Shown: one piece after another, positions 6,298-49,060 of the stretch
How the letters are laid out: each line of letters begins with the position of its first letter
Position numbering within the stretch: the first letter of the stretch is position 1
NCBI GenBank assembly: GCA_947646915.1
Contig: CANSII010000003.1
Span: forward strand, 5,010-69,009
Source: an uncultured Clostridium sp.
GTDB lineage: Bacteria; Bacillota; Clostridia; TANB77; CAG-508
Reading direction: 5' to 3'
Length of the DNA: 64,000 nt
Position numbers and translations under genes: made by a program
Notes under the pieces: generated by a model
Told to the model about the DNA's origin: nothing
Database searches by the model: none
Seen by the model: only the letters and a program-made list of their open reading frames with translations

Positions 6298-9200
6298 TTA
6301 TTTTTTCAACTTCATAGATAGTAACTTAGAAATACCACTCTCTTCCATAGTAACGCCATAAACAGAATCAGCAACCTCCATAGTACCCTTTCTATGAGTA
6401 ATAACCAAGAATTGGGTAGATTCAGTAAACTTCTTCAAATAATCAGCATATCTAAACACATTAACATCATCTAAAGCAGCCTCAATCTCATCAAGAACGC
6501 AGAAAGGAGCAGGATTAATCTTCAAAATTGCAAACAGTAAAGCGATTGCAGTAAAAGCCTTTTCTCCTCCAGACAATAGAAGCATACTTTGTAACTTCTT
6601 TCCAGGAGGTTGAACAGTAATTTCAATACCACACTCTAAAATATTTTCTTCATCTTCTAGTTTTAATTCAGCTTTACCACCACCAAACAATTCAGCAAAA
6701 ACCTCTCCGAAGTTTTTATTTATAACTTTAAACTTTTCTCTAAATTGTTCTTTCATAATTTGAGTCATATCTGAAATTACTTTTCTTAATTGACTCATTG
6801 TATTTTCTAAGTCTAATCTTTGTTCACTCATAAAATCATATCTATCTTTTAGACTTTTATATTCTTCTATTGAATCAACATTTACACTACCAAGTTCTCT
6901 AATGTCAGTTCTTAATGTATTTACTCTTCTTTGAGTTACAGCAACATTTTCTGGTTTTTGATAATCACCTACATTATTTGGAGTAAGTTCATATTCTTCC
7001 CACATTTTGCTTATAACTTCATTAATATCCTCTTCTATTTTTGACTTTCTAACTTCTAATTTTACAAGTTGACCTTTTAAGTCTTCAATAATTTTAAATT
7101 TAGCAGTTATTTCATCCTCTTGTTTTGAAAGTTCTTCACTTTTTTCTTGTCTTTGTTTTTTCATTTTCTCAATTTTTGAACTACTACTTTTTACATTTTC
7201 TTGTATTTGTTCAATTTTTTGAAGAGTCTCATTTATTGACTTCTCTAAGTTTTCATTATCTACTTTTATTTGTTCAATTTGACTTTTCTTATTTTCTATA
7301 CTTGCATTTGCATTTGCCAATTCCTGATTAATTCTTTCTTGAATTTCTTCTATCGAGCTTTCACTTTCGTCAAATGAAGATACAGAAATTTTTAAATTAG
7401 TTATATCAAAATTCAAATCATCAATATATTTTTGATCATCTTTATTTAATTCTGCAAATTCAGAAATAATCTTTGAAAACTCTTCATTTTTCTTTGTTAT
7501 TTCTTCAATTTGCTTTTGTATTTCCTCTTTATTTTGATTAGCCTCTCTTTTCTGATTTTCCAAGTTAGCTTGTTCTTCTTTTAATCTAGCTAATCTATTT
7601 TGAAGTTTTTCAATATTTTCATCTATTGATAAAACTTTCTGTTTTTGTGTAGCATATGTTATATCAATTTCTTGCAATTCTTTTTCTAAATTAGCTGATA
7701 ATTCAAAAGTTCCTTCAATAGAATCTTCATATTTTTCTTTATCCTCTTGTAATTTTTGAATCTTATCTTTTAGTTCTTTTAGTTCTTTTTCTAGTTTTTC
7801 AATTTCTTTACCTCTACCTAAAATATTAACAGTCTTTTTAGCAACAGATCCACCTGTTATGCTACCAGATGAATTAATCAAATCGCCTTCTTGTGTTACT
7901 ATTCTAAAGCTATAATTATTCTGTTTTGCAACTTTTATTGCAGTATCCATATTATCAACAATAACTGTTCTTCCAAGCAAATTTAAAATAATTTGTTCGT
8001 ATTTATTATTATATTTAACTAAATCTGATGCGATTCCTATTACACCTTTTTCATTTCCATTTATTTTATCTAATTTCTTACCTTTAACAGATGAAAGTGG
8101 CAAAAATGATGCTCTTCCTAAATTATTTTTTCTTAAATGTTCTACTAATCTTTTAGCATCTTGTTCTGTTTCTGTCACTATATTTTGAAGGCTTGCACCT
8201 AAGCACATCTCAATTGCAGTCTGTAAATCATTTGGAACATCAATAATATTTGCTAATACTCCATGCATTCCATTTCCAAGTTCTTTGATATTTTCGCAAT
8301 CTTTAAGTAAAGATTTTACACTTTTTATATAACCTTCTTTTTCTTTTTCTGTCTCTATTAAAAATTTTAGTCTTGATTCTTTTATTCTCATTTCACTTGA
8401 CAATGAATTTATATTTTCTTCAAATGATTTTATATTTTGACTTGCTTCCTGTTTCTGTGTTGTTAATTCTTCTAATGTTTTATTTGTTTTATTTCTTTTG
8501 TTTTCTATTTCATTAAAATCCTTTGCAATATCTTCTTTTGTAAGTCTTGTATTATCTAACTCTGAAATAGTACTTTGCATTTCTTGTTTTATCTGTAATT
8601 GTCTTTTTTCACAGTTTTCATAGTTTATATTTTGTGTGTTAATATCTGATTGTAACTCATATTTTTTATCAGTGTTTTGCTCAACTTGCTGTTTATAACC
8701 TTCAATTTCAATCTCTTTTGTTGATAATTTTTGTGTTATTTTATCAAGTTCTTCTTGTTTTTCTTTTAATTCTTTCTCAAACTTTTCTTTGTTTTGTTTT
8801 AAACTATCTCTTTTAGCCTCTTTTTGTTCAATTTCTTCTTTTAACTCATTTACTCTTGCATTTTGATCTTCTATTTCTTTTGAAAATCTTTCACTATTTT
8901 CATTATTATTTGCAATTCTTGTTTTAGCAACATTTATATCTGAATTTAATTGCTCAACTTGCTTTTGACTTTCAAAACCTACATTTGTCATATTTTCAAT
9001 GTTTTCAGTTATTTCATCTATACTCTCTTTTAGTTCTTCTTTTAATATTTTAACTTTTTCTAGTTTTCCTTCTTCATCATTACATTGAGATTGCATTATA
9101 TCTATATCTTTTACTAAATTTTCTAAATCTTGTTTATATTTTTCTATGTTATATACAAATAATCCTATTTCTATACTTTTTAGTTCTTCTCTTAAGTTTA

Positions 9201-15140: not shown

Positions 15141-15203
15141 TTAAGCCAAATAATATTAACTTGAAAAAATGAGTTCGACTATGAGTCTTTTTATTTGGCT
15201 TAT
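15141..15203 (+). repeat. R140 element, internally deleted copy
   Basis: TTAAGCCAAATAATATTAACTTGAAAAAATGAGTTCGAC... closed by TTATTTGGCTTA; only the left conserved block is retained. Confidence 0.6.
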
Positions 15204-18356: not shown

Positions 18357-20013
18357 CTAATAAATTTTTAATTTTTCTAAAATTTTAACAAATTTATTAC
18401 CTGCTGGCAACATTTCTAATTCATCTTTAGTAAATATTTTTAATGCTAATACAGATAATACAAATATTATAACTGCAACAAGTATTGCTATTATTGTTGC
18501 CAATCTTTCGACAATTATTCTTTTAAAAACCAAATATATAAAATATGAACAAATACACATCATTATTGTTGCAAGGATTGGTTTAATAACAAATTTAGAA
18601 AATGTAAGATTTAATTTAATATATTTTCTTAATAATGTAAATGCAATTGTAAATGCAACTAAATGACATGCAACAGAACCAATTGCAGCTCCATAAATTC
18701 CTATTTCAGGAATTGGAATTAATGTTACATTTAAAATAAATTTTACAAAAACTCCACATGCTAGAGAAAATGTAGGAATCATTAATTTTCCATATCCTTG
18801 TAAAACTCCATTTATAGTTTGATCTAATATTGTAAATATTATTGTTAATGAGCTTATTTGTAATATTAATGCTCCATCATTTGCATTTGGGAATAATAAA
18901 TTTAGTATTGGTCCGAGCATATATAAACATTCCTACTGTACATGGCAATCCAATTAACATAGATACCAACAATGAAAATGATGTTTTTTGTGTTATTGTT
19001 TTTTTATCTTTTTTTGCTTTTGCTGCAGAAATTGCTGGCACTAGTGCTGTAGCAAATGCTACATTTATTGCTAATGGTAAACTTGTTAAAGTATCAACTT
19101 TTCCTCCTAAAATTCCATATAATGATGTTGCCATATCTTCAGACATAAAGTTTTTTAAATTTCTTACAACTGTAAAAGAATCTATATTTTTATTAATTGA
19201 AGACATAATTGCTGTTAATGTTATTGGTATTGATACTAATAAAATCTTTTTAACTATTTTTGATACACTTTGATATTTATAATTAACTGTATTTTTAATT
19301 TCTGTTGCTATTTCTTTTCTTTCTGTTTTAAAATATAAAAATAAATAACTAAATCCTAAAAATGTTGCAAGTGTTGTGGCTAAGTTTGCTCCTGCTGCCA
19401 TCCACTTTGTTGAGACATTTGATAATATTGCAACTATTTCGACTACTATTATAGTCAATAATGTTTTAAAAACTTGTTCAAGTGATTGAGATTTTGCTCC
19501 TATACTTATTTTTTGTCTTCCATTGAAGTATCCTCTCATTACAGATGCTACGGTTACAAAAAATATTGCTGGTGATAATGCAACTAATGTCATCTCTGAT
19601 TCTGGTATTTGTAACCAATTATTTGCAATAACTTTAGCTCCAAAAAACAATAATAAACTTCCAATTAAGCCAACTATTGCAAATGTTGCGAATGCTATTT
19701 TAAAAATTCTGTATGCACCTTTATTATCTCCTACTGCAACTCTTTCTGATACTAACTTTGATATCGCACTTGGTAACCCTATTGATGATATTGTTAATAA
19801 TAATGCATATATTTGATATCCACTTGCACATATTCCATTTCCTTTATCTCCAAATCCTTCTCTATTTGTTAGATATAGTGTATATACTAATCCTAAAATT
19901 TTTATTAATATTTGTGAAAACATTAATGTTAACACACCTTGCATAAATCCTTCTTTGTTTTGCTTATTTTTTTTCATATGCTTAGGACTTCTTCTGCTTT
20001 TTTTTCTTATCAT
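18357..20013 (-). pseudogene. spoVB: stage V sporulation protein B (MOP-flippase family), one frameshift
   Basis: ORFs 18877-20043 and 18357-18920 are collinear halves of one polytopic protein (...GLPCTVGMFIYA / GPILNLLFPNANDGA...). The frame changes near 18914-18920. Start probably MIRKK at 20013, after AGGAGG. Confidence 0.75.
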
Positions 20014-20044
20014 CTTTCCTCCTACAGTAGATGTCACTATCATA

Positions 20045-20100: not shown

Positions 20101-20225
20101 TAATATAATTAATATTTAAATTTGCAATTTATTATACCATTTAAGTTTTGGATTTTTTATATTATTTTAATTATAATTTTTATTCATACTTTTATCAATA
20201 GTTTTCACAAATTTTCCAAAAATCA

Positions 20226-23662: not shown

Positions 23663-23728
23663 TTTAAGTTTCAGTTTTTTATTTTTTATAAGTTCAATTA
23701 TAGAAAAAAGATATATAACTTTTTTCTA
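23663..23728 (+). repeat. backbone repeat B, empty copy (no R140 core)
   Basis: TTTAAGTTTCAGTTTTTTATTTTTTATAAGTTCAATTATAGAAAAAAGATATATAACTTTTTTCTA; about 85% identical to 24297-24350. Confidence 0.65.
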
Positions 23729-23766
23729 AATAATACAGTTATACAAAAAAACAAAGCTTAAAAATT

Positions 23767-24210: not shown

Positions 24211-24296
24211 ATTATAGTCTCCCCTTCTCATATATATTTAAAATAATGCTCCTTTATTTATAACATACTTGAATTGTATGTGCAATATCAAAAAGG

Positions 24297-24510
24297 TTTA
24301 AGTTTCGGTTTTTATTTTTCAAACTTTATTATAGAAAAAAGATATATATTATAAAGCGAGTTTGACAGTGAGGCGTTATTCATCTTAAGTTATTATAGTG
24401 TGTCTCTTAGGTTTGAATGTTCAATATCTTAATCGCCTTGGAAAACAGAGCTGAATAATATATATCTTTTTTCTATATAATATATTTTTTGCATAATGCC
24501 GAAACTTAAA
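24297..24510 (+). repeat. backbone repeat B carrying an R140 core (filled copy)
   Basis: Outer arms TTTAAGTTTCGG / CCGAAACTTAAA. Inner 22-nt arms TATAGAAAAAAGATATATATTA (24330-24351) / TAATATATATCTTTTTTCTATA (24456-24477) enclose the core GAGTTTGACAGTG...CGCCTTGGAAAAC. Confidence 0.75.
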
Positions 24511-24558
24511 CAAAAAGGATTTAAGACCAAAATAGATCCTAAATCCTTTTTAATAATA

Positions 24559-27778: not shown

Positions 27779-28597
27779 TTATGCAGTTTTCAGTTCTAAT
27801 CTTAATTTGTCTGCAATCATAGCAATAAATTCTGAATTAGTTGGCTTTCCCTTAGCTGCTGAAATAGTATAACCAAATATATTTTCAACAGTTTTTTGAT
27901 CTCCCCTCCCCCAAGCAACTTCAATAGCATGTCTAATTGCACGTTCAACTCTTGAAGGTGTAGTCTCAAATTTATACGCAATTTTAGGATATAAACTTTT
28001 AGTAATTTGATTTATTACATCAATATCTTTTACAACCATTATAATAGCTTCTCTTAAATATTGGTAACCTTTAATGTGTGCAGGTACACCAACTTCATGA
28101 ATAATATTTGTTACTAATGCTTCTAGATTTTTCTCACTATTTTCACCATTTAAAGGAATTTCTACATATTGTGGCTTAATCTCTCTAGTTGTAAAATTAC
28201 TTGAATTTTCATTTGGATTATAATTTTTAAGTTCTTTAATCCTTTTTATTAATAACTCAATATCAAAAGGTTTAACAACATAATATTCTGCGCCTAAATT
28301 AACTGCTTTTTTTGTTATCTTATCTTGTCCAACTGCTGATAACATTATACAGATAGGTTTGTTTTCATTTTTTAATCCACTTATTTTTTCTAAAACTCCA
28401 ATTCCATCTAAATGTGGCATTATCACATCTAATAAAGCAACATCTGGTTCTTGATTAGTTATCATTTCTACTGCTTCTTCTCCATCTTTGGCAATTCCTA
28501 TCACTTCCATATCATCTTGCTCTTTAATATAAGATGCAAGTGTTTTCGCAAATTCTTGATTATCATCTGCTATTATTATTTTGATTTTCTCTTTCAT
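27779..28597 (-). CDS. spo0A: sporulation master regulator Spo0A
   Basis: Receiver domain ([20 protein letters not shown]) plus the Spo0A-specific C-terminus [15 protein letters not shown]...[16 protein letters not shown]. Confidence 0.97.
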
Positions 28598-29479: not shown

Positions 29480-30727
29480 TTATTTTGTAACATTTCCTGC
29501 AACATAACCAGTTGAATAAGCAATTTGAAGATTAAACCCACCTGTATATGCGTCAACATCAATTATTTCTCCAGCAAAATATAATCCTTCTATAATTTTA
29601 GATTCCATTGTTTTAGGATTAATTTCTTTTATATTAATTCCACCACTGGTAATTATCGCTTCTTCTATAGGTCTAAATCCACTTATAGCAATTTCAAAAT
29701 TCTTTAATAAATTAACTAAACTCCTTCTCTCTTCTTTAGTTATTTCATTAACTTTTTTATTAGCATCTATTTTACTTTTCTCAATAATAACTGGTATTAA
29801 TTTTTGTGGAATAAGCTTATTTAGACTATTTTTAAATTGTTTATTTTTCAATTCTTCAAAATCTCTTAAAATTCTTTGATCTAATTTTTCTTCTGATAAA
29901 CTTGGTTTAAAATCTATTTTTAAAACTATCTTTTTACTTTGTACTAATTGATTTATATTTTTATATCTAACTAAATGTGCAGATCCACTTAATATAGTTG
30001 GACCAGATACTCCAAAATGAGTAAATATCATTTCACCAAAGTCATCATAAATTATTTTCTTATTATCAAGGTTTTTTAATTCAATCTTAACATTTTTTAA
30101 AGATAGTCCTTGTAATTTTTTACATAAATTTATATCATAACTTTCTAATGGCACTAAAGATGGTTTTAGTTCTGTGACAGTATGTCCTAACCTTCTTGCA
30201 ATTTTATATCCATCGCCTGTAGAACCTGTTAAAGGATAGCTTTTGCCTCCTGTGGCTAAAATTACTTTATCTGCTTGAAATATATTATTTTCTGTTTTTA
30301 CATTAAATCCTTTTTCTGTTTTTATAATCTCTGTAACTTTATGATTATATTTAATATCTACATCTGATTTTTTTAGTCTTTTGTATAGACACTCCAAAAC
30401 ATCAGATGATTTATCTGTTAAAGGGAATACTCTATTTCCTCTTTCAACTTTTACTTCTAAACCTTGCTCTTTTAAAAATTCTACTATGTCTTTATTAGTA
30501 TAACTTTTAAAGCAACTATATAAAAATTGACCATTTCCTGGAGTATTTGAAATAAATTCTTCAATTGGTAAAGATGATGTAATATTACATCTACCTTTTC
30601 CTGTTATTAATAATTTCCTTCCTAGCCTTTCCATTTTCTCTAGTAATATAACTTTATTTCCATTTTCAGCAGAAGCTATTGCTGACATCATTCCAGCTGG
30701 TCCTCCACCTATTACTGCTACTTTCAT
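29480..30727 (-). CDS. HI0933/BaiN-like FAD-dependent oxidoreductase
   Basis: N-terminal VAVIGGGPAGMMSA, 415 aa, C-terminal GEIIDVDAYTGGFNLQIAYSTG. Confidence 0.85.
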   Translation of the reverse strand: MKVAVIGGGPAGMMSAIASAENGNKVILLEKMERLGRKLLITGKGRCNITSSLPIEEFISNTPGNGQFLYSCFKSYTNKDIVEFLKEQGLEVKVERGNRVFPLTDKSSDVLECLYKRLKKSDVDIKYNHKVTEIIKTEKGFNVKTENNIFQADKVILATGGKSYPLTGSTGDGYKIARRLGHTVTELKPSLVPLESYDINLCKKLQGLSLKNVKIELKNLDNKKIIYDDFGEMIFTHFGVSGPTILSGSAHLVRYKNINQLVQSKKIVLKIDFKPSLSEEKLDQRILRDFEELKNKQFKNSLNKLIPQKLIPVIIEKSKIDANKKVNEITKEERRSLVNLLKNFEIAISGFRPIEEAIITSGGINIKEINPKTMESKIIEGLYFAGEIIDVDAYTGGFNLQIAYSTGYVAGNVTK

Positions 30728-30763
30728 AAATATCCCTTCAATCTTTATTATATAATATATATT

Positions 30764-31200
30764 TTAAGTCATAATAATATTAATTTAAAAAAATGAGTTT
30801 GACCTGTGTTTCTATTCTCTTTAACCCATTATAGTGTGTCTCTTTTCTTTGAATTTTCAGTGTCTTTAACGCCTTGGAAAACGGAATTTTTGAAAATTCA
30901 TATTATTATGACTTAATAATATGAATTTAAAAAAATGAGTTTGACCTGTGTTTCTATTCACTTTAACCTGTTATAGTGTGTCTCTTTTCTTTGAATTCTC
31001 AGTGTCTTTAACGCCTTGGAAAACGGAATTTTTGAAAATTCATATTATTATGACTTAATAATATGAATTTAAAAAAATGAGTTTGACCTGTGTTTCTATT
31101 CACTTTAACCTGTTATAGTGTGTCTCTTTTCTTTGAATTCTCAGTGTCTTTAACGCCTTGGAAAACGGAATTTTTGAAAATTCATATTATTATGACTTAA
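30764..31200 (+). repeat. three tandem R140 elements (142-bp period)
   Basis: Units 30772-30908, 30914-31050 and 31056-31192, separated by TGACT. The whole array is bracketed by inverted TTAAGTCA / TGACTTAA. Units 2 and 3 are identical by eye; unit 1 differs at a few positions. Confidence 0.9.
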
Positions 31201-31229
31201 TAAAAATATATCTTCAAAAAAAATTATTT

Positions 31230-32480
31230 TTACTTCATTTCCTGTATTGCTTTTAGTATTCCAAATTTTCCATAGTCATAAGTAAGACCACCTTGCATAT
31301 AAGCAATATAAGGCTCTCTTATTGGACCATCACAACTCAATTCAATAGTTGAACCCTCTGTAAAAGTACCTGCAGCCATTATAACTTTATCTTCATAACC
31401 TCCCATTTCACTTGGAAATGGAATTACATTTGAATCAATAGGAGAGCCTTTTTGTATTCCTTGACAAAATTTAACTAGCTTCTCCTCTGAACCAAATTTA
31501 ATTGTTTGAACAATATCAGCTCTTTTTACATCAAATTTTGGCTCTACATTATAACCCACTCTTTCTAAAATTCTACTTGCAAAAACAGCCGTTTTAACAC
31601 TACTTGCAACAACTTGTGGTGCAAAGAATAGACCTTTTATAAAGTTGGTATTTTGTCCTAATGAAGGACCAATTTCTTTGCCTATACCTGGTGCAGTTAA
31701 TCTTTCTGCACATAATTCTATTATCTCTCTTCTTCCTACTATATATGCACCTGATGTAGCTATCCCTGCTCCTAAGTTTTTCATTAAAGACCCTACAGCA
31801 ATATCTGCCCCTATTTCTATTGGTTCTCTGTCTTGAACAAATTCTCCATAACAATTGTCTACCATTATTATAACTTCTTCATTTACTTCTCTTATAGCTT
31901 TTATTACTTTTTCTATTTTTTCAATCGTTAAGCTTTCTCTAGTTGAATATCCTCTAGATCTTTGTATTTCAATTAATTTTACATCTTTTTTTGAAAGTCT
32001 CTCTTGTATTGTTTTTATATCAAAATCATTTTCTATAAGCTCTATTTGTTCATATTTTATTCCATATGATTTTAATGAACTTTTACTAACTTCATTTCCA
32101 CACCCAATTACTGTTTGCAATGTATCATATGGTTCTCCTGTTATACTTATCATCGTTTCATTTGGACGTAATAATGCCCCCAATGTTATTGATAGTGCAT
32201 GTGTTCCTGAAATCAGTTGTGCTCTCACCAACGCATCTTCAGCTTTGAATACATTTGCATATATTTCTTCTATTTTGTTTCTTCCAGCTTCATCTATTCC
32301 ATATCCAGTTGAAGAATTTAAGTGCATTTCTTGCAAGTTACATTCTTGTAATGCTTGTAATACTTTTATGCTATTTTGTTCTGCTATTTGTTCTATTTCT
32401 TTGAATTTTGGTTCTATCTCTTTTTCTACTTGTTTTGATAATTCTTCGATTTCTTTATCAATTCCTAATTTTTGTAACAT
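31230..32480 (-). CDS. methionine gamma-lyase family protein (aluminium-resistance/YnbB-like, PLP enzyme)
   Basis: 416 aa, typical YnbB-family length and N-terminus; family assignment from recall. Confidence 0.75.
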   Translation of the reverse strand: MLQKLGIDKEIEELSKQVEKEIEPKFKEIEQIAEQNSIKVLQALQECNLQEMHLNSSTGYGIDEAGRNKIEEIYANVFKAEDALVRAQLISGTHALSITLGALLRPNETMISITGEPYDTLQTVIGCGNEVSKSSLKSYGIKYEQIELIENDFDIKTIQERLSKKDVKLIEIQRSRGYSTRESLTIEKIEKVIKAIREVNEEVIIMVDNCYGEFVQDREPIEIGADIAVGSLMKNLGAGIATSGAYIVGRREIIELCAERLTAPGIGKEIGPSLGQNTNFIKGLFFAPQVVASSVKTAVFASRILERVGYNVEPKFDVKRADIVQTIKFGSEEKLVKFCQGIQKGSPIDSNVIPFPSEMGGYEDKVIMAAGTFTEGSTIELSCDGPIREPYIAYMQGGLTYDYGKFGILKAIQEMK

Positions 32481-38028: not shown

Positions 38029-38108
38029 AATTTCATCATCCCTTCTTTTCTTTACTATAAAATTCTAAATATCTATTTTTAATTTTATTATATACAACAA
38101 GCGAACAT

Positions 38109-38996
38109 TTAAGTTTTATTTTTTTCTTTTAAAATCTTTTCTAATTCTTCTTTAGAAAAAACATACTTTTTATTGCAAAAATGACATGTTAATTCAGCTT
38201 TTTCATCTTCTTCAATCATTTCTTTTAAAACTTTTTTATCTAATGTAGCTAATCCTTCTTCCATATGCTCTTTTGAACAATCACATTCATATATTGGTGT
38301 AATATTTTCTTCTATTATTTTAACATTTTCATCACCTGATACTTTTTTTGCAATATCCACTAAACTTAGGTTTTGATCTAACATTTTTGAAATTGCTCCA
38401 GCTTTAAAAATTGATTGCTCAACTTGTGATATTTCTTCATCAGTTGCATCAGGCATTGGTGTAATAATATATCCTCCTGCTGATTTTACTCCATTTTTAT
38501 CAACTAAAACTCCTAAGGCTACTGCTGTATTTTTTTGTTCTGATTTTGCAAAATATTCTGCAAAGTCTTCTGCTATTTCTCCTGATACTAAAGGGCATAT
38601 TCCTATATATGGTTCTTTAAGTCCAATATCTTTGATAACATTTACAAATCCTGCATTTCCAACAGCTCCACCAACATCTAATTTTTCCATATCATTTAAT
38701 GGTAAATCAACAATTGGATTTGTAACATATCCTTTTATTTTAGGATATTTATTTGCTGTTGCTAGTAGCATTCCTATAGGTCCATTTCCTTTTAATTGAA
38801 CTGTTATTTTGCCCTTAATCCCTTTCATTTCACTTGCCATTATTGTAGTTATTGTTAATAATCGTCCAAATGCTGCTGTTACAACTGGACTTAAATCATG
38901 TATTTTTCTTGCTTTTTCTACTAATTCTGTTGTATCTGCACATATTATTGATATTTTTTCATTATATGCTAAAAACTTGATTATTTTATCTTGCAT
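38109..38996 (-). CDS. hslO: redox-regulated chaperone Hsp33
   Basis: 295 aa, C-terminal zinc centre CDCS...CHFC. Confidence 0.9.
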   Translation of the reverse strand: MQDKIIKFLAYNEKISIICADTTELVEKARKIHDLSPVVTAAFGRLLTITTIMASEMKGIKGKITVQLKGNGPIGMLLATANKYPKIKGYVTNPIVDLPLNDMEKLDVGGAVGNAGFVNVIKDIGLKEPYIGICPLVSGEIAEDFAEYFAKSEQKNTAVALGVLVDKNGVKSAGGYIITPMPDATDEEISQVEQSIFKAGAISKMLDQNLSLVDIAKKVSGDENVKIIEENITPIYECDCSKEHMEEGLATLDKKVLKEMIEEDEKAELTCHFCNKKYVFSKEELEKILKEKNKT

Positions 38997-39079
38997 TTAT
39001 ACTCTCCTACTTTTAATTATTTAAAGTTTCGTTTTTTTTATTTACGAAATCAATTATAGCATTTCAAAATGTATATTTA

Positions 39080-40783: not shown

Positions 40784-40878
40784 TTGTATCCCTCCTTATT
40801 TTTTATATACTATATCATATATAGTCTAAAAAGTCCACCAAATAAGTGAAACTTTTGCTATATCTTGTTAATTAATCC

Positions 40879-40963
40879 TTTATAATGTGCTTCTAAAATA
40901 TAAATTCTCAGTATCTTAAACACCTTGGAGAACGCAGTTTTTGAAAATTTATATTATTATGGC
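40879..40963 (+). repeat. R140 element, right half only
   Basis: TTTATAATGTG...CTCAGTATCTTAAACACCTTGGAGAACGCAGTTTTTGAAAATTTATATTATTATGGC. Confidence 0.6.
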
Positions 40964-41066
40964 TAATTTATTTTCACTTTGTATTGCAAAATTCTAAATT
41001 TCATATTGGTGCCTAGAAAACAAAAAAACTGCCTTAAAGGAAATAATCCTTTAGGCAGTTATTAAT

Positions 41067-43152: not shown

Positions 43153-44719
43153 TCAATTTTGTGTGTTGTTGAGATTAATATCATTTAATTTCTTAAAATT
43201 AAACATTATATCTACTTGTTTGTCTTGGTGTATTTCTATTTTATTAATGATTATTTTCATTATTTCAGGTGTTGGTTTTTCTAATTTTAAAAATTCTCTA
43301 ACTATTTTTTCTATCTCTTTACTATCATCGTTTGAAGCATCTTCTTTTTTGTTTTTTAACTCATTGTATTCCTTTTCTTTTTGATTTACTTCATTGATTA
43401 GTTTGTTAAATAGCCTTTCATACATTTCTTCACTAACTTTTCCATTTAACTTATCAACATACATTTTGTCTATGTTATCCTTTATAATATTAATTTCCAT
43501 TTGTTTTTGTTTTAGCATTTTTCCATAATCTTGTTTTGTTCTATTATTCTTTATGTTTAATTCTATTTTCTTACTATCGATTGCTAAAAACAAGTTTTTT
43601 ATGTATTGTAGTATTGTTTTTTCTAATGCTTCATAGCTAAATCCATGTGATGTACAAAGTCCTAATTTTGAATTTCTACGATAATTATTACATATCATAA
43701 ACATATAGCCGTTTTTCTTTCCTCTTACTCCTATTTTGTGTTTGCATTCATAACAAAACAATAATCCATCTAATAAAAACTTATGCTTTTTTTCATTTCT
43801 ATTATATTTTTGCACAATTACCATTTTTTGTACTTTGTCAAAAAGCTGCTTTTCAATGATTGGTTCGTGTGTGTTTTCCACAATGTTCCACTGTTCTTGT
43901 GGATTACTTCTTAATTTTCTGTTTTTATAACTTATTCTACTTCTCTTATTTTGTACCGTATTTCCAATATATACCTCATTTTTTAAGATGTTTTTGACTG
44001 TTTTATTTTCCCAAAAAGTTACTTTATTATACCTTATTTGATTCGCTGTAGGTATTTTTTTGTCATTTAGATAATTTTTGATGGCTCCTACTTCTTCTCC
44101 GTAAACTAGCCTTATGAAAAATAGTTCTTACGATTTCCGCTTCTGGCTCACATATCATTAATTTGTTTTTATCGTTTGAGTCTTTTACATATCCTAATGC
44201 TGTTTTTCCTCCTACCCATTTTCCTTGTTTTTGCATAGTATGTAAGGCTGTCCTAATCTTTTTAGATAAATCTTTGGAATACATATCATTTAAGATAGAT
44301 TTAAATGGTGCTATATCATTATTACCATTATTAACTGCAAAAGTATCAATTCCATCTGTTACAGAAATATATCTAACTTCATGCTCTGGAAACCATTTTT
44401 CAATATATTCTCCTGTTTCTATGTAATCACGACCTAAACGTGATAAGTCTTTTGTTATGACCATATTTACTTTTCCGTTTTCGATATCTCTAATCATTCT
44501 TTGGAAATCTGGTCTATTAAAATTTGTACCTGTATATCCTGGATCTATATAAATATCTACTAGTTCATATTCCCATCCTAATTTTTCTACATATTCTGTT
44601 AGTAAAGATTTTTGATTTGTAATACTTTCACTTTCATCAAATCCTTTGTCTACATCTTCTTTTGATAATCTTATATATATTGCCACCTTATAAATTACTG
44701 TTTTTATTGTCTCAAGCAT
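43153..44719 (-). pseudogene. large serine recombinase, one frameshift
   Basis: Resolvase domain VAIYIRLSKED...ESESITNQK...ITKDLSRLGRD (44063-44719). The recombinase/zinc-ribbon part continues in another frame from ~44115 (IRLVYGEEVGAIKNYLNDKKIPT...) into ORF 43153-43881. Shift at the A5 run 44117-44121. Confidence 0.8.
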
Positions 44720-47764: not shown

Positions 47765-49060
47765 CATTGCATAAACTTTTTGTGGGAAACACCACTATTG
47801 ATATTTTATCCATACATTATTTTTCTTAATATTTTCCTTATATTGCTATGCATTCCTGTTTTATCAATTTCAAATGTATATGTTTTTGTTTCTTCAACGC
47901 CTTCTTTTATATTTCTTGCTATTATTTTATCATATTTTTTTAGTTTTCTATTAATTTTTTTCTTTTTTATTAATTCTTCATATATTTTCCCTCCATTACT
48001 TACAAATACCCTTAATCTGCTCATTTTATCTATTCCATCATCACTCCATGTTCTTGGTCTTGAACTCATTCTATATGCATATACATGGCTTATATGTCCT
48101 TCTGCACTGCATCCTTTTAAATATTTTTCATCTGTTTCATATATTTCTATGCCTTTCCATTGATTCTTTATATATTTATAACTATCTTTTACTTTTTCTT
48201 TTCTTTTTTCATCTTCTGTTTTTTCTATTATTTCTTTAAATATATTTTCTACACTTACTGGATCATATATATTTATGTTATACCATAACTTACTTTTATA
48301 TTGTGGGAAATCTACTGTCGCCTGATTTATATACTTTAATAAATGAAATCTATCTAATACAAACTCTGATTTTTCTATCCAATTTAATCCTTCTTTTATC
48401 CATCCTGCTCCATCTCCACCTATATACACTTTTTCTATTTCTTTCATATCATACTTTTTATCTATATATTCTGCTACTTCTAACCATAAATCTTCACTGT
48501 TCTTTCCTAAACTACCTATATAATGCACATTCTTTAATATATTTCTTTTTCCTTTTTGATAATTTCCTTCATGCACATATATTAATTTTGGCATTCCTAT
48601 TTTATTTCCTCTTTCTGATACATGGTCTTCATCTACTTCTATGTATATTCTTTTGTTCGTTTATTTCTATAATATCTTCTTGTATATTCTATATTTCCAT
48701 AATCGGTTATTAACGTTCTTTTTCTTAAATCTTTTGTTTCATATTCTATTTTTCTTCTTGTGTCTTTAAAAATGCTTGTATCAATACTCTCTAAAATTCC
48801 CACAAGTGTTTTTCTTCCTGCTTCATCAAATACATCTCTTAATTTTCTACTAAACATGCTTATTTCACTATTTTTTAAGCTTTCCTCTAAACTTTTTTCT
48901 AAAAATTCTTTATTTTCTATTATTGTTTGTATTATAATATTAATCATAAAGAAGCACCTCCTTGATATGGCTTTGTTTTCTTAACAAAAACATCATATCA
49001 ATTGGTGCTTCTTTTGTCTAATTTTTTATTTTATTTTTCCCACATATTATTTATGCTAAT
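47765..49060 (-). mobile_element. ISLre2-family insertion sequence, internally deleted
   Basis: Imperfect terminal inverted repeats CATTGCATAAAC..TGTGGGAAA / TTTCCCACA..TTTATGCTAAT, flanked by the 9-bp direct repeat TCTAGTATT (47756-47764 and 49061-49069). Confidence 0.75.
47806..48947 (-). pseudogene. ISLre2/UPF0236-family transposase, frameshifted and shortened
   Basis: N-terminal part ...GILESIDTSIF...TDYGNIEYTRRYY, C-terminal part YIGGDGAGWIKEG...LDRFHLLKY. Frame change at the T4 run 48651-48654. About 100-150 aa appear missing relative to the recalled ~470-aa family size. Confidence 0.7.

Follow-up and report, generated by a model that had tools for sequence, protein, structure and literature searches.

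A tripled hairpin-forming repeat between two genes of an uncultured gut Clostridium: probable in-place duplication within a single mobile-element insertion

The stretch analysed here, 64,000 nt of an uncultured Clostridium sp. (contig CANSII010000003.1, positions 5,010 to 69,009; hereafter the window), carries between two genes three head-to-tail copies of a non-coding 142-bp unit bounded by inverted repeats. We conclude that this array is probably one inserted non-autonomous, hairpin-forming mobile repeat, an internal 142-bp segment of which was later duplicated in place. The tripling looks like an ordinary local duplication, a one-off secondary event within an unusual family. The family itself is undescribed, and it is abundant in low-GC gut Clostridia of mouse, human and rabbit.

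Tandem Repeats Finder reported a single array at 30772-31203 with a period of 142, 3.0 copies, 98% matches and a score of 829, and the first 33 nt of the unit occur exactly three times in the window, compared with none expected from shuffles. Units 2 and 3 are identical and unit 1 departs from them at five bases (30781, 30818, 30827, 30828 and 30856), in agreement with a preliminary description of this DNA, which had listed four sites of difference, one of them spanning two bases. The terminal arms inside each unit are 23 nt long and 91% complementary, and at each unit-to-unit junction 15 bp pair perfectly around the 5-nt loop TGACT. The inverted sequences said to bracket the array are present as well, TTAAGTCA at one extremity and TGACTTAA at the other. 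The hexamer TAATAA opens all four boundaries (30772, 30914, 31056 and 31198). Folding of the array yielded a z-score of about -5.3 relative to shuffles, with both strands alike. As to coding content, the units of 142 bp (full elements measure 214-270 bp) contain only unconserved open reading frames (ORFs) of 11-14 codons. The features of the inserted block are, in order of position within each group:

30750-31223, plus strand: whole inserted block, 474 bp, consisting of the array and outer, partly inverted-repeat sequence (22 nt on the left, 26 nt on the right)
30745-30749, no strand: TTATT, left candidate target-site duplication (AATAA in gene direction)
31224-31228, no strand: TTATT, right candidate target-site duplication (AATAA in gene direction)
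30764-30771, plus strand: TTAAGTCA, outermost part of the 5' arm, present at the left array end only, with the counterpart AAAGCA/AAGCA in other copies of type A
30772-30913, plus strand: unit 1, 142 bp, which keeps the family-typical arm mismatch, T at 30781; its own unitigs at 1x in sequencing run X1
30914-31055, plus strand: unit 2, 142 bp, identical to unit 3; shared segment at ~2x in run X1
31056-31197, plus strand: unit 3, 142 bp, identical to unit 2
31198-31203, plus strand: TAATAA, fourth copy of the 6-bp microhomology and putative duplication boundary
30792-30887, plus strand: conserved core of unit 1, matching the core profile with E about 1e-21
30934-31029 and 31076-31171, plus strand: conserved cores of units 2 and 3, located with the core profile
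30894-30928, no strand: junction palindrome of units 1/2, perfect 15-bp stem, loop TGACT
31036-31070, no strand: junction palindrome of units 2/3, perfect 15-bp stem, loop TGACT

The number of copies was assessed in three public runs (X1-X3), which were examined as assembled contigs and unitigs; minor variants are dropped in contigs. At 100% identity, the depths in X1 were 12.1-12.7 for the flanks, 10.3-10.4 for the unit-1-specific unitigs, 23 for the segment shared by units 2 and 3, and 20.5 for the junction unitig. Depths of 1x, ~2x and ~2x, respectively, fit one unit-1-type copy, two unit-2-type copies and two junctions, and thereby bear out the three head-to-tail copies with a period of about 142 bp that had been described. 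One unit-2-type copy in X1 has an A>G variant, which tells the two copies of this type apart; because of this variant, part of the unit 2/3 segment appears as a 10.3x unitig, and X1 must represent a strain other than that of the window. Mismatch-free contigs spanning a junction were also obtained from X2 and X3, that is, from three independent runs in all. Short-read assemblies stop at the array: the contigs L001 and L002 both terminate inside it.

The array lies between two genes pointing in the same direction, which are followed by the gene for Spo0A:

31230-32480, minus strand: upstream gene, Met_gamma_lyase family (pyridoxal-phosphate enzyme; Pfam PF06838, E 2.9e-169), with its stop codon 6 nt from the insertion
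29480-30727, minus strand: downstream gene, HI0933-like flavoprotein (Pfam PF03486, E 6e-93), followed by an Impact_N-family gene and spo0A
27779-28597: spo0A, a gene with a Spo0A_C domain (Pfam)

The gap between the first two genes amounts to 502 nt in the window, whereas it is 24-26 nt in L068-L070 (flavoprotein 92% identical) and in L074/L075 (80%). When the junctions are aligned, the inserted block falls between AAAATAA and AGATTGAAGG of the empty site, which reads TAG-AAAATAA followed by AGATTGAAGG, and the pentamer TTATT, single in the empty site, flanks the block on either side in the window. In L071, a 91% relative, an 80-bp relic consisting of one arm and the first 20 nt of the core is located at the exact insertion point. 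Because this relic sits at the identical point, the insertion predates the split from L071 and can decay. As judged from these alignments, the array is an insertion between genes that are adjacent in relatives. A different structure is found at the same intergenic site in L072 (2815-3000) and L073, which are 79% relatives: two direct copies of ~45 bp, including the ribosome-binding region (ATAATTAGAAAATTTTTTGRATGACGATGAACGGAGCGAAGC) and lying ~75 nt apart, which are unrelated to the palindromic family.

The layout of the junctions argues for duplication after insertion. In related copies of type A the arms reach AAAGCATAATAAT.../...ATTATTATGCTTT; the matching AAGTCA is found in the array at its left end only. 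This outer arm hexamer appears a single time at every junction, as TGACT(T), and the outer sequence, a partial inverted repeat, is confined to the two ends of the block. Since the hexamer is single at each junction and the outer repeats are restricted to the ends, what has been repeated is a stretch from the interior of a single insertion. TGACT, which had been taken for a spacer, is accordingly the outer end of one arm. Likewise, the repeats of ~24 nt that had been regarded as the termini of the element do not hold as such: related arms run further, and three copies of the family have separate outer ends with target duplications. Rolling-circle multimers or serial insertions are disfavoured, because complete termini would be expected at the junctions and none is there. 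Of the mechanisms that had been proposed, unequal recombination or slippage thus fits best, and rolling-circle or replicative copying loses ground.

The array may have arisen as follows. The element would have entered the 24-nt junction between the Met_gamma_lyase-family and flavoprotein genes, which, given this spacing, are probably co-transcribed. A first duplication would have taken place at the 6-bp direct repeat TAATAA, which opens the arm and recurs just past the element, possibly through slippage during replication, promoted by the hairpin. The third copy would then have come from unequal exchange between the two resulting 142-bp repeats, which would account for the identity of units 2 and 3 (a single-base difference in X1). 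Position 30781 is T in unit 1 and G in units 2 and 3, where it makes the junction stem perfect; this T-to-G change looks like a templated quasi-palindrome correction within the junction palindrome.

Beyond the array, the repeat is present in many copies. In X1 the depth of the array arms and core reaches 450-1150x compared with ~12x for the flanks, the contigs run on into many different sequences, and the repeat depth overall corresponds to 40-200 times that of the flanks. Five family loci are found in the window, and all copies beyond the array are intergenic and oriented as the array. Full, degraded and core-less relatives in the window are the following, all on the plus strand:

234-482: c306, a complete miniature inverted-repeat transposable element (MITE; match ~306-453, core 326-421) with terminal repeats GTTACAATTCACAG/TTGTGAATAGTAAC and an 8-bp target duplication, ACAAATAT, at 226-233 and 483-490
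24297-24510: c24336, a type-B copy (match ~24336-24483, core 24355-24451) with terminal repeat TTTAAGTTTCGG and an 8-bp target duplication, CAAAAAGG, at 24289-24296 and 24511-24518
40840-40971: degraded copy, reduced to one arm and the core's 3' half (40870-40937)
59870-59983: diverged copy with a 7-nt insertion in the core
15149-15196: internally deleted copy, the 5' arm plus GAGTTCGAC fused straight to the outer part of the 3' arm
23663-23762: type-B palindromic element of 100 bp, made up of outer terminal repeats and the outer halves of the arms but no core; either a palindrome not yet filled or one derived by deletion

A search pattern was derived from the two blocks that are best conserved and was run against metagenome-assembled genomes (MAGs) and metagenome contigs. 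True copies numbered ~25 in MAGs of uncultured Clostridia from the guts of mouse, rabbit and human and ~23 in metagenome contigs, ~50 in total, and a handful of chance matches fell in unrelated phyla. Pattern matches in viral contigs were rejected as unrelated sequence; the core profile gave E 0.002 for one of them and no match for the other. The unit had no BLAST match in the plasmid and phage collections. Rfam 15 returned none over the window at gathering thresholds and only chance-level hits for 30600-31400 at E up to 10. The searched literature contained no description of anything similar. Every other sampled copy of the family is a singleton; near-identical arrays would break short-read assemblies. 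In the human-gut lineage some copies are hybrids, in which an arm with its flank from one locus is combined with those from another: L037 joins the left half of L051 (L051/L014) to sequence of L042, and L048 is likewise a hybrid. These copies suggest exchange between copies at different loci and larger rearrangements by recombination.

Several lines of evidence indicate that the family is mobile. Reciprocally to the array, the L068 lineage, in which the array is absent, carries a copy in the interval from an 85-aa ORF to sipL, which measures only 108 nt in the window. This insert of 270 bp ends in GTTACAATTCACAGCC / GGCTGTGAACTGTAAC with 16-bp terminal repeats and is flanked by an exact 8-bp duplication, AAAAAACT, a sequence that is single in the window. 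Together with the L071 relic, the two reciprocal pairs of the window and the L068 lineage document polymorphism between filled and empty sites. A strict MITE scan, requiring an exact 8-bp duplication and >=11/14 terminal-repeat matches, passed three copies, namely c306, c24336 and that of L068. Hence the previous assignment of the unit to a mobile, MITE-like family of non-coding DNA bounded by inverted repeats is well founded: the copies are short, non-coding, numerous and dispersed, they are polymorphic for presence and absence, and three of them have target duplications and terminal repeats.

The outer ends are of more than one kind. The terminal repeat of c306 is that of L068 (GTTACAATTCACAGCC) and the one of c24336 differs (TTTAAGTTTCGG), so the same core resides in at least two unrelated outer elements. 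The type-B terminal motif TTTAAGTTTCGGTTTTT occurs 11 times in the window compared with 1.85 expected (207-223, 501-517, 20140-20156, 23663-23679, 23746-23762, 24297-24313, 24494-24510, 38108-38124, 39021-39037 and others), where it serves as the terminal repeat of short palindromic elements (54-214 bp), some of which contain the core and some of which do not. The copy c306 is itself nested at the exact centre of a 54-bp type-B mini-palindrome (207-233 and 491-517) and is bracketed by a pair of TTTAAGTTTCGGTTTTT. In X1 the type-B arms reach ~2800x, compared with 13-15x for the flanks and tens to a few hundred for the core of that copy; type-B elements consisting of arms only are about 10 times commoner than those bearing a core. 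Either the core module enters the centres of palindromes, or the short derivatives form by deletion between stretches of AT repeats. That the arms were already there as target hairpins is rejected for the array and the L068 copy, since the empty sites are non-palindromic and the arms came with the insert; for type B it may hold.

The element is built in a way opposite to that of common mobile repeats. An alignment of 26 copies defines a core of ~95 nt with invariant blocks in the order GAGTTYGAC, TTATARTGTGT, TGAAT and TCTTAAACGCCTTGGARAAC; the invariant blocks include TCTTAAACGCCTTGGAGAAC and TTATAGTGTGT. The arms of 25-35 bp are unrelated between subfamilies, even within one genome, and form near-perfect inverted repeats within each copy. 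In the proposed stems 92% of the cells pair, compared with 69.8% in shuffles (0/500 reach this value) and 44-55% with slid partners, and 112 stem cells have double changes compared with 37 expected. The core is kept as sequence and the arms are kept as a pair, which is therefore the reverse of a terminal repeat bound by a transposase. In one copy, that upstream of sipL in L068, an extra insert of ~51 bp (6463-6513; AGCTACTGCATACTGG...CTCCAGCA) lies inside the otherwise invariant core block GTTCTCCAAGG. The arms of L036, L038, L057 and L061 differ from that of L032 by a tandem duplication of ~21 nt on the 3' side (TTATTGTATATCTTTTTT twice); small-scale slippage therefore occurs in arms, which also speaks for duplication after insertion. 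Some possible likenesses of the element, on which nothing here is based, are to the Spo0A box (TGTCGAA, compared with GGTCGAA/TGTCAAA), to a CodY site (AATTTTTGAAAATT in the type-A arm), to the SpoIIIE recognition sequence (GAGAAGGG compared with GAGAACGG), to the pC194-type nick site, to a tRNA B-box and to integron attC sites, the last with the order of the GTT/AAC boxes reversed.

The core is found in both orientations. When loci were oriented on the core, it was inverted between strains at two of them, L009 versus L040 and L023 versus L046, whose flanks are 97-100% identical by direct alignment; both orientations were seen between samples, not within one population. Among further assemblies of these loci, L035 and L056 side with L009, L065 with L040, and L039 and L064 with L023. 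Both arms carry a matching substitution in L023 versus L046 (GGGATG/CATCCC versus GGAATG/CATTCC), and the arms thus evolve in concert. Recombination between the arms would therefore explain perfect arms of arbitrary sequence without invoking an RNA. At four other loci, sampled 2-5 times each, no flip was observed; two of these are confirmed same-direction contexts, a third by inspection.

The orientation relative to neighbouring genes follows a nearly strict rule. The GAGTTYGAC side is directed toward a gene start in 28 of 29 cases, and on the opposite side there is a gene end in 23 cases and a gene start in 7. In no case does a copy separate convergent genes, and both flip loci lie between divergent genes, where either orientation agrees with the rule. 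Flips turn the element around with respect to replication, so that the rule relates to the adjacent gene rather than to the replication fork. Read most simply, this pattern means that the core may have a polar effect connected with transcription, tolerable or beneficial only toward the downstream gene; our best guess would be outward transcriptional activity, or tolerance of read-through, toward the gene on the GAGTTYGAC side. Many downstream genes keep their own promoter beyond the element. They encode diverse housekeeping functions (rpsP, lepA, ftsA, topB, dtd, rpiB-like), and the element is for this reason not a regulon-specific leader.

These observations raise the question of whether the family consists of invertons, in which a site-specific recombinase flips the core between the arms and thereby switches a polar signal such as a promoter or read-through/termination, so that the array would be three switches in series. 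We consider this unlikely, despite several features that speak for it. The core is indeed inverted at two otherwise near-identical loci, the arms are near-perfect inverted repeats changing in concert, and the size is similar to that of known switches, which commonly measure ~95-150 bp between repeats of 20-35 bp. That the same end points toward the gene start in 28 of 29 cases is, in addition, a criterion by which inverton-embedded promoters are called (PMC11892184). However, groups of invertons share homologous repeats that are recognised by their invertase (PMC11892184), whereas here the repeats are wholly different between subfamilies within one genome. Furthermore, all 22 copies between same-direction genes have one orientation, none of the four repeatedly sampled loci was flipped, the downstream genes are of the housekeeping kind and not surface or phase-variable functions, and the window contains no intact invertase. 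In L009 versus L040 an arm mismatch moves with the core, so the crossover would have occurred at the very edge of the arm. Strand-switch joints were absent from the contigs of the runs checked, though contigs drop minor variants.

A structured RNA is decidedly less probable. The unit would then be a cis-acting operon element, such as a long RNase III hairpin whose apex binds a protein, or else a small RNA present in many copies, and the tandem would represent three RNA genes or modules. Such a role would be in line with the strong covariation of the outer stem and of the inner helix GTTY/RAAC (U-A 11, C-G 10, U-G 4), the latter lying beside tandem G.A/A.G and an invariant C-G pair, with a short variable hairpin following GAC, in which AGTGA..TCACT is replaced by the compensatory AGTCA..TGACT, and with the stable fold of the array noted above. 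Also, most copies are located in the transcription path of the upstream gene in a fixed orientation. Against this, folding of the core consensus on both strands revealed no conserved structure past the inner helix, and the Rfam search remained negative even at E up to 10. Among the stem mismatches, 15 are G.U and 24 are A.C, with no G.U excess to tell the folded strand; as the arms are almost perfect, no wobble bias is readable in the stems. Flipping and concerted change account for the identity of the arms at the level of DNA, the element came in as an insertion flanked by target duplications and is no fixed component of a leader, and between divergent genes it is located upstream of both genes' own promoters.

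We give little credence to the possibility that transposition itself made the tandem, be it by rolling-circle or replicative copying past a terminus or by repeated insertion beside a resident copy. The units are head-to-tail with a constant period of 142 bp, unit 1 differs from units 2 and 3 at five sites, as if derived from different donors, and the family does nest into other palindromes. Yet the unit is internal, the junctions hold one outer arm hexamer and zero outer flank repeats, they lack a target duplication, and the other sampled copies are all singletons. No HUH or Rep-type gene was present among the window ORFs scanned. Three of the five differences in unit 1 match variants in other copies of the family, and gene conversion is adequate to account for them. 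An assembly artefact, by collapse or expansion of a repeat, is very unlikely and the least probable of these explanations, since, despite a high-copy repeat and short-read contigs (L001, L002) that end exactly within the array, the junction unitigs are free of mismatches in three independent runs and the X1 depths and variant separate the two unit-2-type copies.

As to in-place duplication of a single mobile insertion, a number of observations weigh against it or fit it poorly. The candidate duplication of the array block is only 5 bp long and AT-rich, and the extreme ends of the block are not inverted repeats. A clean target duplication with a terminal repeat is found in only 3 of ~38 non-redundant copies, and these three have two unrelated terminal repeats around one core, which no single transposase would explain. 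A search confined to the window revealed no insertion sequence with matching ends that could serve as an autonomous partner. Units 1 and 2 differ by 3.5%, so that either the first duplication is old or gene conversion from other copies is needed. The count of three copies derives from unitig depth and not from one molecule or read spanning the array. The core blocks are strongly conserved across mouse, human and rabbit lineages and, together with the orientation rule, this conservation points to a selected function that is unexplained if the family is a selfish MITE. In the search for a sigma-A promoter, a consensus scan and inspection of the family consensus by eye, in both orientations, gave no properly spaced -35/-10 pair. 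TATART on the plus strand and TATAAN in gene direction are conserved in the core, with no -35 element at 16-18 nt.

The family has a layered organisation, in which an asymmetric core of ~95 nt is placed at the apex of arms of 25-35 bp and some of these hairpins lie inside outer terminal repeats with 8-bp duplications. A transposase acting in trans would move the copies, and recombination between the arms, which flips the core between strains, would keep the arms identical, as their concerted change suggests. Going further, it might tentatively be speculated that the ~95-nt core (GAGTTYGAC...TTATARTGTGT...TCTTAAACGCCTTGGARAAC) is a distinct entity, separately mobile or selected, that resides at the apex of unrelated hairpin MITEs (type A, type B and others), is flippable by recombination of the host arms and has a directional effect on transcription of the adjacent gene.

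Small hairpin-forming repeats are known from other bacteria. Correia elements of Neisseria (NEMIS/CREE) and ERIC/IRU of enterobacteria are non-coding intergenic repeats of 100-160 bp with long inverted-repeat arms, high copy number and empty-site polymorphism, which are co-transcribed and form long hairpins. The family described here is similarly small, intergenic, high in copy number and polymorphic for insertion. In Correia and ERIC elements, however, the terminal repeats are conserved and the target duplication is TA, whereas here the arms vary, the core is conserved, duplications are of 8 bp where visible, and the orientation is nearly fixed. Among Firmicutes, RUP and BOX of Streptococcus pneumoniae and the bcr1-type MITEs of Bacillus cereus are mobile or modular repeats of small size that lie between genes, are likewise non-coding and form hairpins, and BOX has internal modules in tandem. 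They resemble our family in these respects, BOX also in its tandem modules, but there is no sequence similarity, as judged from the negative searches of plasmid and phage collections and Rfam, and repetition in BOX is by design, whereas here it is a one-off at one locus. REP/BIME and REPINs, which are linked to RAYT transposases, and IS1397-type insertion sequences are known for composite or nested palindromes, insertion into palindrome centres and orientation biases. Palindromic units, nesting in palindrome centres and an orientation bias are shared with our family; REPs, in contrast, measure 20-40 nt, have a 5' tetranucleotide that is conserved and lack a target duplication, compared with a non-palindromic core of 95 nt in our unit, and no Y1/RAYT transposase was found among the window ORFs scanned. 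With invertons such as fimS, the flgB and cwpV switches of Clostridioides difficile and the capsule promoter switches of Bacteroides, the family has in common a short segment bound by inverted repeats, the occurrence of both orientations in nature and a position upstream of genes with a likely orientation-dependent effect (PMC11892184). Unlike invertons, it has neither conserved repeats nor a linked invertase, it is mobile with target duplications and high copy number, and its flips were seen only where both neighbours point away. In Drosophila, double insertions of transposable elements seed satellite arrays (McGurk and Barbash 2018, PMC5932611). There too a dispersed element becomes a short tandem array that can be expanded by unequal exchange, but that system is eukaryotic and starts from two complete insertions, whereas here an internal microhomology duplication of a single insertion would be the first step.

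The window as a whole has a G+C content of 26.5% and encodes Spo0A, SMC, Mfd, sporulation proteins and an [FeFe] hydrogenase; its DNA was also found in mouse-gut metagenomes. The region at ~43-51 kb contains the following:

44063-44719 and 43153-43881: Resolvase domain and Zn_ribbon_recom domain, respectively, of a split large serine recombinase, with no matching repeats nearby; probably the decayed integrase of a mobile element
47806-48947 and 50336-50962: ISLre2-family (UPF0236) transposase split into ORFs of 102 aa and 262 aa, with a YhgA-like Transposase_31 nearby

No matching repeats were present near the split ISLre2-family transposase either, and the combination of recombinase, ISLre2-family and Transposase_31 sequences suggests a degraded mobile-element region. 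At 18357-20043, two ORFs that overlap each other (18877-20043 and 18357-18920) correspond to the N-terminal and the C-terminal part of stage V sporulation protein B, and this split spoVB suggests a frameshift or sequencing error. An AT-rich tandem repeat with a period of 25, ~3.7 copies and 77-79% matches is located near the window end, at 63554-63648.

The array provides a clean bacterial example of a dispersed palindromic element that has turned into a short tandem array, and it accounts for the breaks that short-read assemblies of these gut Clostridia show at such sites. The architecture of the family inverts the usual pattern of MITEs in that the centre is conserved and the arms vary freely, and the elements nest, flip and follow a near-absolute orientation rule. 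Should the family be purely selfish DNA, it would be useful for strain typing and would call for caution in MAG assembly and in pipelines that call invertons. If, in contrast, the core holds a promoter, a read-through signal or a protein-binding site, the insertions would rewire housekeeping and sporulation-linked operons and could add unrecognised variation between strains. And if the core is a distinct entity, it would constitute a new nested, invertible regulatory cassette spreading through small-genome gut Clostridia, three of which would be located in the junction of a gene cluster leading towards spo0A.

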